IMG/VR virus record: IMGVR_UViG_3300005323_000036
Reading direction: 5' to 3' (one strand)
DNA length: 27,951 nt
Source: a virus
Taxonomy: Duplodnaviria; Heunggongvirae; Uroviricota; Caudoviricetes
The notes under the pieces were generated by a model. The model searched no databases and was not told the DNA's origin. It saw only the letters and a program-made list of their open reading frames with translations. A program made the position numbers and the translations under genes. This document shows positions 23,574-23,639 of the stretch, piece by piece. Every line of letters begins with the position of its first letter. Position 1 is the first letter of the stretch.

Positions 23574-23639
23574 GGTAGATGTAACTCTAACATGGTAAGA
23601 GTGTCGCGAGGTAATCGGTTCGAGTCCGATCTTCTACCA
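23574..23639 (+). tRNA. tRNA-like element lacking an anticodon arm (pseudo-tRNA or tRNA mimic)
   Basis: Acceptor GTAGATG/CTTCTAC (6 of 7 pairs) plus extra G-C; U8-A9; D stem ACTC/GAGT with GG in the loop; T arm ATCGG-TTCGAGT-CCGAT; only 11 nt (GTCGCGAGGTA) between the D and T arms. Confidence 0.75.

Follow-up and report, generated by a model that had tools for sequence, protein, structure and literature searches.

What might a tRNA be doing when it has lost the half that decodes? The question is raised by an element at positions 23574-23639 of a 27,951-nucleotide stretch of viral DNA (the window; all unqualified positions below refer to it), which represents bases 50521-78471 of the complete 127,255-bp IMG/VR record IMGVR_UViG_3300005323_000036, a genome with direct terminal repeats. 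We refer to this virus, and to its copy of the element, as W. No canonical tRNA was recovered from the complete W genome by ARAGORN (several modes) or by the Rfam model RF00005. We find that the element is one of a family, not described before, that occurs in at least five uncultured tailed viruses and, taking the structural claim alone, it is very likely that the W locus specifies a real, conserved, anticodon-less tRNA-like RNA. For its function we tentatively prefer a role in RNA processing, which is weighed below against the alternatives.

According to a preliminary description made from the letters of the window, every element of the tRNA elbow is retained, and direct reading of the sequence found all of them in place. 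The acceptor helix is of 8 bp when G-1:C73 is included, with seven Watson-Crick pairs and a single T.T opposition at 6:67. It is followed by T8 A9 (23582-83), a 4-bp D stem (23584-87 with 23599-602, to which T-A could be added as a fifth pair) enclosing an 11-nt loop that contains GG, and a T arm closed by G53-C61. Thus, the 7-bp acceptor, the TTCRANY T-loop, the GG-bearing D arm and U8 of tRNAs are all found in W. What is absent is the anticodon arm with its 5-bp stem and 7-nt loop: the gap between the D and T stems is only 11 nt, as the preliminary description had it, in place of both the anticodon and variable arms. The minimum free energy (MFE) fold of the isolated 66-mer has the tRNA-like shape at -16.8 kcal/mol, and since its energy z-score is merely -1.2 the folding energy alone is not significant.

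It is rather the quality of the match that counts, because a loose descriptor of such a module is expected to be matched by chance 0.58 times per genome. A strict descriptor (T-loop GTTCRANYC, five Watson-Crick T pairs, at least six of seven Watson-Crick acceptor pairs, U8, four Watson-Crick D pairs, GG in the D loop and a linker of 3-14 nt) gave one match in the real 127-kb genome as against none in 1000 dinucleotide-preserving shuffles. Neither Rfam at its gathering thresholds nor ARAGORN matches the W element. The sole Rfam trace is to the selenocysteine tRNA model (tRNA-Sec, RF01852) at 16.5 bits and E=4, below that family's threshold of 47 bits, in an alignment that deletes the anticodon and variable arms; the long variable arm and the UCA anticodon of tRNA-Sec are both lacking. 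The transfer-messenger RNA (tmRNA) mode of ARAGORN found none, Rfam gave no tmRNA match in the window, and even at E values up to 10 Rfam returned no match to a CRISPR repeat or other family in the element region.

Relatives of the locus emerged from a combination of searches. Those with single proteins (the flanking 115-aa protein, or the family B DNA polymerase, PolB, alone) yielded no related loci, and BLAST against deposited phages gave no match. Exact patterns for a 20-mer across the junction and a 22-mer of the T arm and acceptor had no match in viral contigs, nor did the 21-nt T-arm/acceptor string have an exact match in GTDB species genomes. A pattern for the 3' hairpin block returned merely chance matches in GC-rich phages and bacteria; a pattern joining the leader motif (below) to ATTGGCCGG found no homologue beyond the virus G001; and a 19-mer of the leader motif recovered from metagenome contigs one true match, identical to G001, along with six chance matches. 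An alignment of PolB retrieved 31 related viral contigs, and BLAST of the locus against five of them identified a collinear, syntenic match in G001 (136 kb, PolB 65% identical). Scanning for acceptor-plus-T-arm modules missed by ARAGORN uncovered a 49-nt module in G003 (copy at L056:6012-6116), whose upstream sequence matches the block that is conserved upstream of the W and G001 elements. A degenerate pattern for this block then located a copy in V4 (L199:5999-6112), a virus with a G+C content of 39% and, on its contig, a single protein similar to one of W, a pyrimidine-dimer DNA glycosylase (in W at 4607-5008; PF03013, E=5e-23). A covariance model (R2) for which V4 and G003 were the sole input scored G001 at 62.8 bits, W at 37.7 bits (E=3e-9) and another G003 copy at 35.1 bits; its weaker match in G004 turned out on inspection to be a tandem of two mini-tRNA-like modules separated by 25 nt. 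The modules of G004, a virus without a canonical tRNA, lie on its minus strand (L204 = G004:23010-26141; genome 24522-24648 and upstream to ~24770), where there are two, perhaps three, in tandem with short spacers, each followed by an ATCAG/TATC-type trailer. A strict acceptor-plus-T-arm scan reported unannotated modules in G004, G003, G001 and V4, against a chance expectation of 0.025 per 76 kb. A model built from a single sequence (R1) was too specific and was abandoned: it gave G001 merely 7.6 bits, and its match in G015 proved to be an ordinary tRNA-Ala. No family in Rfam 15 corresponds to the element, and word searches in the open-access subset of the literature found no anticodon-less tRNA-like family in archaeal viruses, returning instead t-elements, YrlA, plant-virus tRNA-like structures and viral tRNAs. 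Since the standard tRNA finders and Rfam miss all copies of the family, viral tRNA censuses overlook them.

The family is defined by a characteristic arrangement, which W displays in full: a leader TGCwATrGTTGTAAAC, a covarying hairpin, CAACTG and then the anticodon-less acceptor/T-arm module. The leader, comprising Block A, the hairpin P0 and a linker (Table 1), is carried by five copies, namely those of W, V4 and G001 and two in G003. Block A is identical in W and V4 and differs by one or two changes in G001 and both G003 copies; given the near-zero protein similarity between W and V4, this identity argues for strong constraint or transfer of the module. The sharing of a 17-nt leader by viruses with so little overlap in gene content points to a conserved partner, which might be a protein, of host or virus, or else a target RNA. 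Two other readings of the leader motif were rejected, namely an ATGG-N9-CCAT hairpin within it, which is not conserved in G003, and a genome-wide promoter motif, as the TTGTAAAC sites elsewhere are without common context.

The anticodon arm is absent from W and from all five homologous copies in the four other viruses, whereas each tRNA-like copy has complete acceptor and T stems, the missing part being confined to the bottom half. As judged from the copies compared, the absence of the arm is ancestral to the family and maintained. A private deletion in W is thereby contradicted, and an assembly error is opposed both by the family-wide absence and by two further assemblies of W that are identical over 5.3 kb (an identity that leaves microdiversity uninformative). 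The samples ENA ERZ27247097 and JGI 3300001866 contain this virus. The 7-8-bp closing helices have unrelated sequences: GTAGATG/CTTCTAC in W, ACCGATG/CATCGGT in V4, ACCGATA/TATCGGT in G003, AATGGGA/TCCCGTT in G001, and CGGATGT/ACATCCG and ACCGGAA/TTCTGGT in G004. The T arms, each with a 5-bp stem, bear the loops TTCGAGT, TTCAAGT, TTCAATT, TCCGAAT, TTCAAAC and TTCGATC. U8-A9, a 4-bp D stem with a GG loop and a connector of 9-11 nt are kept in W and V4 (V4: TA plus GTTT-AACTGGCA-GAAC, connector AATTGGAGT, 9 nt); the D arm is reduced to a small D-like hairpin in G003 and G004 and is absent or rebuilt in G001, and the connectors of G003 and G001 are ACC (3 nt) and GTTGGCTAAT (10 nt), respectively. 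The preliminary description had folded the W connector as a mini-hairpin capped by a GNRA tetraloop, GUC-GCGA-GGU. This can be drawn, with two G.U pairs and one C-G, but occurs neither in the MFE fold nor in the homologues, and because the connectors of V4, G003 and G001 differ there is no conserved mini-hairpin. Its tRNA-His-like flavour survives in part: an extra -1:73 pair is present in five of the six tRNA-like copies, as G:C in W and as A:U (three copies) or U:A elsewhere, not G:C, with C.A in G001.

The unrelated sequences of the paired strands allowed the helices to be assessed by covariation, in an alignment of the five leader-bearing copies made by a structure-assuming model. In it 95.1% of pairing cells are paired, against 72.2% in shuffles (0/500 of which reach the real value), and pairing falls to 32-43% in slid controls, with the 3' partners moved by 1-3 columns. 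Eleven of 18 pairs are altered on both sides, spread over P0, the acceptor and the T stem (Table 1); between W and G001 alone there are four compensatory pairs in the closing helix and three in the T stem. The P0 stems covary as CCAT/ATGG, CACAT/ATGTG, GCGT/ACGT and TTCAT/ATGGA around a conserved loop, CTGCGCAA. The model misaligns the G001 acceptor, an error that lowers the pair count rather than raising it. In G001 the true closing 5' strand is the second copy, AATGGGA, and the upstream ATGG belongs to P0; an alternative in which AATGGGG closed the element and CAACT/AGTTG formed a "D arm" was ruled out by the third and fourth homologues. Of the checks that the preliminary description proposed, ARAGORN and Rfam left the element unrecognised and the comparison of homologues produced compensatory pairs in five copies; its refuting condition, homologous loci with a full anticodon arm, was not borne out, and its opinion that the loss of the arm looks selected is supported by the acceptor/T covariation together with the lack of the arm in the homologues.

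Table 1. Features of the W locus, in order along the window
Feature	Position	Strand	Basis or remark
Promoter-like TATA element TTATTATATAC, predicted start near 23338 (ATAGTGCAGC)	23306..23316	+	predicted from motif
Long hairpin (~10 bp), heptaloop GTCAAAT	23402..23434	+	separate conserved module; loop recurs in relatives
Block A, 17-nt motif TTGCTATGGTTGTAAAC (consensus TTGCwATrGTTGTAAAC)	23533..23549	+	part of model R2
Hairpin P0, CCAT-CTGATCA-ATGG	23551..23565	+	3/6 pairs compensatory, 93% of cells pair (5 copies)
Conserved linker TTCAACTT (family consensus GGCAACTGTAAC)	23566..23573	+	alignments
Acceptor helix, 5' strand (G-1, GTAGATG)	23574..23581	+	read directly; 5/7 pairs altered on both sides in alignment
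U8-A9 and D arm ACTC-TAACATGGTAA-GAGT	23582..23602	+	sequence
11-nt connector GTCGCGAGGTA in place of anticodon and variable arms	23603..23613	+	sequence; length and letters unconserved
T arm ATCGG-TTCGAGT-CCGAT	23614..23630	+	helix 100% paired, 3/5 pairs compensatory
Acceptor helix, 3' strand CTTCTACC (CTTCTAC + C73)	23631..23638	+	sequence, alignment
3' hairpin ATTGGCCGGATAG...GAAGCCGGTGG	23639..23677	+	common to W and G001 only
T-rich tract TTCTTTT, possible archaeal-type terminator	23685..23691	+	predicted from sequence

The features of Table 1 suggest that the locus is a GC-enriched non-coding transcription unit of ~350 nt, which would run from the promoter near 23310 to the T tract in the order promoter, GTCAAAT hairpin, Block A, P0, mini-tRNA, 3' hairpin and T tract. 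The G+C content climbs to 40-53% from ~23380 to 23680 and drops after the T tract at 23685-91. An extended promoter-like motif, TATATACTTTrAAATC...TAGTG (23310-23345), recurs at 22733-22775 upstream of an open reading frame (ORF) at 22808, resembles the promoters of the repeated ~100-bp mini RNA genes of this genome (genome positions 106942, 118885; reverse strand near 25100-25150 of the window) and aligns with L058:6385-6420 of G001. The identical GTCAAAT heptaloop is borne on unrelated stems in G001 (L058:6775-6805) and V4 (L199:6180-6210), at positions relative to the mini-tRNA that differ among the three viruses, and this hairpin appears to be a further RNA module conserved at these loci. 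Downstream of the element, an ATCAG-type trailer and then hairpins of other kinds are found in V4, G003 and G004. A 48-codon ORF at 23382-23528, annotated by one gene caller, has one CxxC and is G+C-rich for the genome; it is probably not coding, as there is no conserved counterpart in G001 and the GTCAAAT hairpin, whose loop recurs elsewhere, lies within it, which is why we read the region as non-coding. Two copies of the sequence GTTGT(T)AAAC(C) are set 64 nt apart in W (23476-23488 and 23540-23552) and likewise in G001 (L058:7312-7325 and 7376-7389), and the shared spacing is suggestive of a pair of binding sites or of a duplicated RNA motif.

The surroundings of the homologous loci bear on the origin of the element. 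In G009 an array of 27-28 tRNAs ends 1.3 kb upstream of the homologue of the W gene at 25323-25739, in G003 a tRNA-Thr and a tRNA-His are found 1.2 kb from the homologue of the W ORF at 23039-23293, and 300 nt upstream of the G001 element lies a probable tRNA-Met(CAU), interrupted after position 38 by a 15-nt intron. The element therefore lies in the tRNA-gene district of this virus group, which makes both a tRNA origin and tRNA-type co-transcription plausible, and it is probably derived from a tRNA. An origin from tRNA-His in particular is possible: four features of the W acceptor (G1, U2, U6.U67 and G7) recur in the tRNA-His genes of G003 and G009, and the U6.U67 mismatch is found in only three of 33 tRNAs of the relatives, two of them His. 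However, tRNA-His as the nearest isotype by overall similarity was unsupported (rank 4), and since G003 holds both the element and a separate genuine tRNA-His, the W element is not simply the orthologue of the latter. The two tRNA-His genes (G003 L056:6471-6543 and G009 L059:6140-6214) have, beside the U6.U67 mismatch, U-1:A73 replacing G-1:C73.

Several tRNA genes of the relatives are themselves unusual. Upstream of the G001 element are two further tRNA-like genes (L058:6917-6992 and 7008-7095): in one, the acceptor is perfect, the T-loop is of 8 nt (TTCGCAAT), and the place of the anticodon arm is taken by a 6-bp stem with a pentaloop cap; the other is called by ARAGORN as tRNA-Met(CAT) with a 15-nt intron. 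A tRNA-like gene of G003 (L055:2112-2186), between the homologues of the W ORF 23039-23293 and gene 25323-25739, has a hexa-A anticodon loop (the two-base anticodon 'aa' of ARAGORN) and is immediately followed by an 8-9-bp hairpin. In G009, tRNA genes at L059:5720-5884, L059:8803-8924 and L063:7778-7913 carry inserts of 46-95 nt in the anticodon region, two of which share the blocks CTCTAATCGnyTGAyCTC and GGGTAGATGTGAGwTACTTC, suggestive of a conserved intron-borne RNA. The likeness of GGTAGATGT to the conserved inserts of two G009 tRNA genes was dismissed for want of significance, being equalled in 79 and 738 of 2000 shuffles, and the 9-mer of the comparison occurs elsewhere too. An attachment-site (attP) reading of the element was also discarded: there is no match to the tyrosine integrase family PF00589 in the complete W genome, its 21-nt T-arm/acceptor string has no exact match in GTDB species genomes and, unlike an att core, it keeps both tRNA halves with the middle missing.

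W is a tailed virus, probably of an archaeon. Its genome has archaeal-type TATA promoters and codes for PolB, ribonucleotide reductase, PKD-domain proteins, a RuvB-like ATPase and glycosyltransferases, and the Met tRNA of the relative G009 has A1:U72 as its first pair, which is of the archaeal/eukaryal initiator type. The window has a G+C content of 27% and small ORFs tightly packed on the plus strand; a solo RuvB-like ATPase (PF05496/PF05491) is encoded at 9315-10235. Among the 38 window ORFs, Pfam and PHROGs identified no tRNA-related enzyme, and the complete W genome has no match to NTP_transf_2, the family with the fold of the archaeal CCA-adding enzyme, so that host enzymes would need to act on the RNA.

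What selection appears to have kept of the tRNA is the stack of acceptor and T arm that RNase P, tRNase Z and the CCA-adding enzyme read, and the part that is gone is the decoding half. Of the three functions put forward in the preliminary description (RNase P/tRNase Z processing signal, aminoacylatable mimic, nuclease decoy), the first suits this anatomy best. Our tentative choice, which may well be wrong, is that the element is a processing handle, a tRNA-derived top-half mimic cut by the RNase P and tRNase Z of the host. The host tRNA end-processing enzymes would treat it as a pre-tRNA: a cut by RNase P on its 5' side would give the RNA made of Block A and P0 a precise 3' end, a cut by tRNase Z after position 73 would free the downstream hairpin, and the leftover would be a stable mini-tRNA of ~65 nt that is unable to decode. 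We favour this role because the layout of conserved upstream motif, element and hairpin, with two modules around a 25-nt spacer in G004, is that of the archaeal t-elements and also that of MALAT1-mascRNA and of the murid gammaherpesvirus 68 units discussed below. Several observations weigh against it. The covariation comes from only five sequences in an alignment fitted to the structure. G001 departs from tRNA geometry, in that its T-loop TCCGAAT has C at 55, its T stem is followed by a 1-nt bulge and its best-pairing register lacks a D arm, and in G003 the second leader copy is followed by a plain 7-bp hairpin with no T arm, so the tRNA-like part is not obligatory. The ORF at 23382-23528, if a real gene, could make the element a structure of a 3' untranslated region, and another promoter-like TATA lies directly upstream of Block A, whose start, if used, would fall inside P0. 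Moreover, nearest-neighbour folding of the W precursor favours a helix between leader and trailer, CAATGGT (23560-66) with ACCATTG (23636-42), at -27.8 to -29.2 kcal/mol as against -14.6 to -16.3 for the tRNA-like fold, and puts the probability of the acceptor helix in the precursor at ~0. This last point underlies a reading that we judge improbable, by which the RNA adopts in vivo a three-way junction closed by leader and trailer, the tRNA likeness is vestigial and the Block A-P0 stem-loop (GTTG...CAAC, ~36 nt) is the active part, for example as a protein-binding or repeat-like decoy RNA. Block A and P0 are indeed the best conserved part, once even without a T arm in G003, and the competing helix CAACT/AGTTG is kept in sequence in G001 and G003. 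Yet the leader-trailer helix overlaps the covarying P0 and requires a 3' hairpin block that W shares with G001 alone and that V4, G003 and G004 lack; the acceptor-like helix, on the other hand, covaries fully across copies, and the Rfam search up to E=10 brought up no CRISPR repeat or other family.

Another view keeps the tRNA fold and gives it a different use. The element might be a chargeable, non-decoding mini-tRNA that, once cut by tRNase Z, receives CCA and is aminoacylated, most plausibly by histidyl-tRNA synthetase (HisRS), which reads the extra -1 nucleotide rather than the anticodon, so as to serve as a charged-tRNA mimic, a synthetase sink or a decoy for tRNA-attacking defence nucleases or toxins; we regard this as unlikely. 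HisRS charges minihelices and microhelices with G-1:C73, and that of the archaeon A. pernix accepts G, A or C at -1 and ignores the anticodon (PMC9976931). W has G-1:C73 and the acceptor positions held in common with tRNA-His of G003 and G009, the frequency of the -1:73 pair in the family speaks for this alternative, and W, G001, G004 and V4 were counted as having the module without a canonical tRNA. Against charging, G-1:C73 is not conserved (A:U, U:A and, in G001, C.A) and no CCA is encoded, the elbow is not conserved either, the D arm being mostly lost in G001 and G003, and the His genes are not the closest tRNAs overall, with G003 having a true tRNA-His besides the element. A stronger form, which strikes us as improbable too, would see a dedicated class of mini-tRNAs with an 8-bp acceptor and no anticodon, given by host enzymes a CCA end and probably histidine (archaeal HisRS reading position -1 and ignoring the anticodon), that act outside decoding. 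If it were true, the charged mini-tRNAs could, as mimics of charged tRNA, blunt amino-acid-starvation or tRNA-targeting defences or serve as aminoacyl donors, and the same cuts would set free a second functional RNA, the invariant 17-nt leader with its hairpin. The least probable reading is that the element is a decaying, functionless relic of a lost tRNA gene and that Block A and the flanks are regulatory sites at the level of DNA. G009 and G003 do keep tRNA genes near the syntenic anchor genes where W has none, the connector varies in length, the acceptor has a U.U mismatch, the T-loop of G001 is degenerate, and the paired GTTGT(T)AAAC sequences of W and G001 have the spacing expected of protein-binding sites. 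Neutral decay, however, would not keep perfect acceptor and T helices through a full turnover of sequence in five viruses, would not yield the tandem copies of G004 and would not always strike the same arm; further, the surrounding intergenic DNA is unalignable between W and G001, and the covariation of P0 indicates constraint at the level of RNA. The copies form a graded natural series of small RNAs, from the full top half with a D arm (W, V4) to a bare acceptor/T minihelix (G001), which could reveal the substrate needs of archaeal RNase P, tRNase Z, the CCA-adding enzyme and HisRS.

Comparison with known systems places the processing reading in context. The canonical tRNA-His of G003 and G009 resembles W in its 8-bp acceptor with a -1:73 pair, a D loop AAUGGUA(A) and a standard T arm, whereas W has no anticodon arm and lies below all tRNA detection thresholds. 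In the mascRNA/MALAT1 and menRNA/NEAT1 systems, RNase P makes the 3' end of a conserved RNA and tRNase Z frees a non-decoding tRNA-like RNA of ~60 nt. As in W, a small tRNA-like module thus sits directly downstream of a conserved RNA; these are, however, eukaryotic nuclear long non-coding RNAs, mascRNA has a short anticodon-like stem, and there is no homology. The tRNA-microRNA-encoded RNAs (TMERs) of murid gammaherpesvirus 68 are non-aminoacylated viral tRNA-like units followed by hairpins and a T-run and separated by tRNase Z; they differ from the W element in having a full cloverleaf, in being RNA polymerase III transcripts of animal cells and in that their hairpins are microRNA precursors. 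The acceptor, the T arm and D-loop mimicry without an anticodon are also combined in tmRNA and the bacterial Y RNA YrlA (bioRxiv 10.1101/312249), where a long functional helix (the tmRNA body or the Ro60-binding stem) replaces the anticodon stem. The family described here has 3-11 unpaired nt in that place, and a helix of the Ro60-binding type is not found in W, with its short and unpaired connector. An archaeal parallel is that of the Haloferax t-elements, tRNA-like structures that RNase P and tRNase Z cleave, thereby fixing the ends of neighbouring RNAs, and with which a small RNA flanked by them has been released (PMC4326828), one of which is placed upstream of the 5S rRNA of Haloferax volcanii by the studies that this paper cites (Hölzle et al. 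2008, 2012, cited in PMC4326828). Like W, they present a non-decoding tRNA-like fold within a longer archaeal transcript, a transcript that in W is predicted from promoter and terminator motifs, and the stacked acceptor and T helix typical of t-elements and mascRNA is present. Unlike them, the W family is viral, has its own leader motif and hairpin, shows no sequence relation and wholly lacks the anticodon arm, and its cleavage is a prediction. The tandem of G004 (mini-tRNA, 25-nt spacer, mini-tRNA) mirrors the engineered construct in which a CRISPR RNA is placed between two t-elements. Should RNase P and tRNase Z cut the W element, it would be a natural viral counterpart of this Haloferax device for making small RNAs with exact ends, and archaeal viruses would be using tRNA punctuation to build non-coding RNAs.

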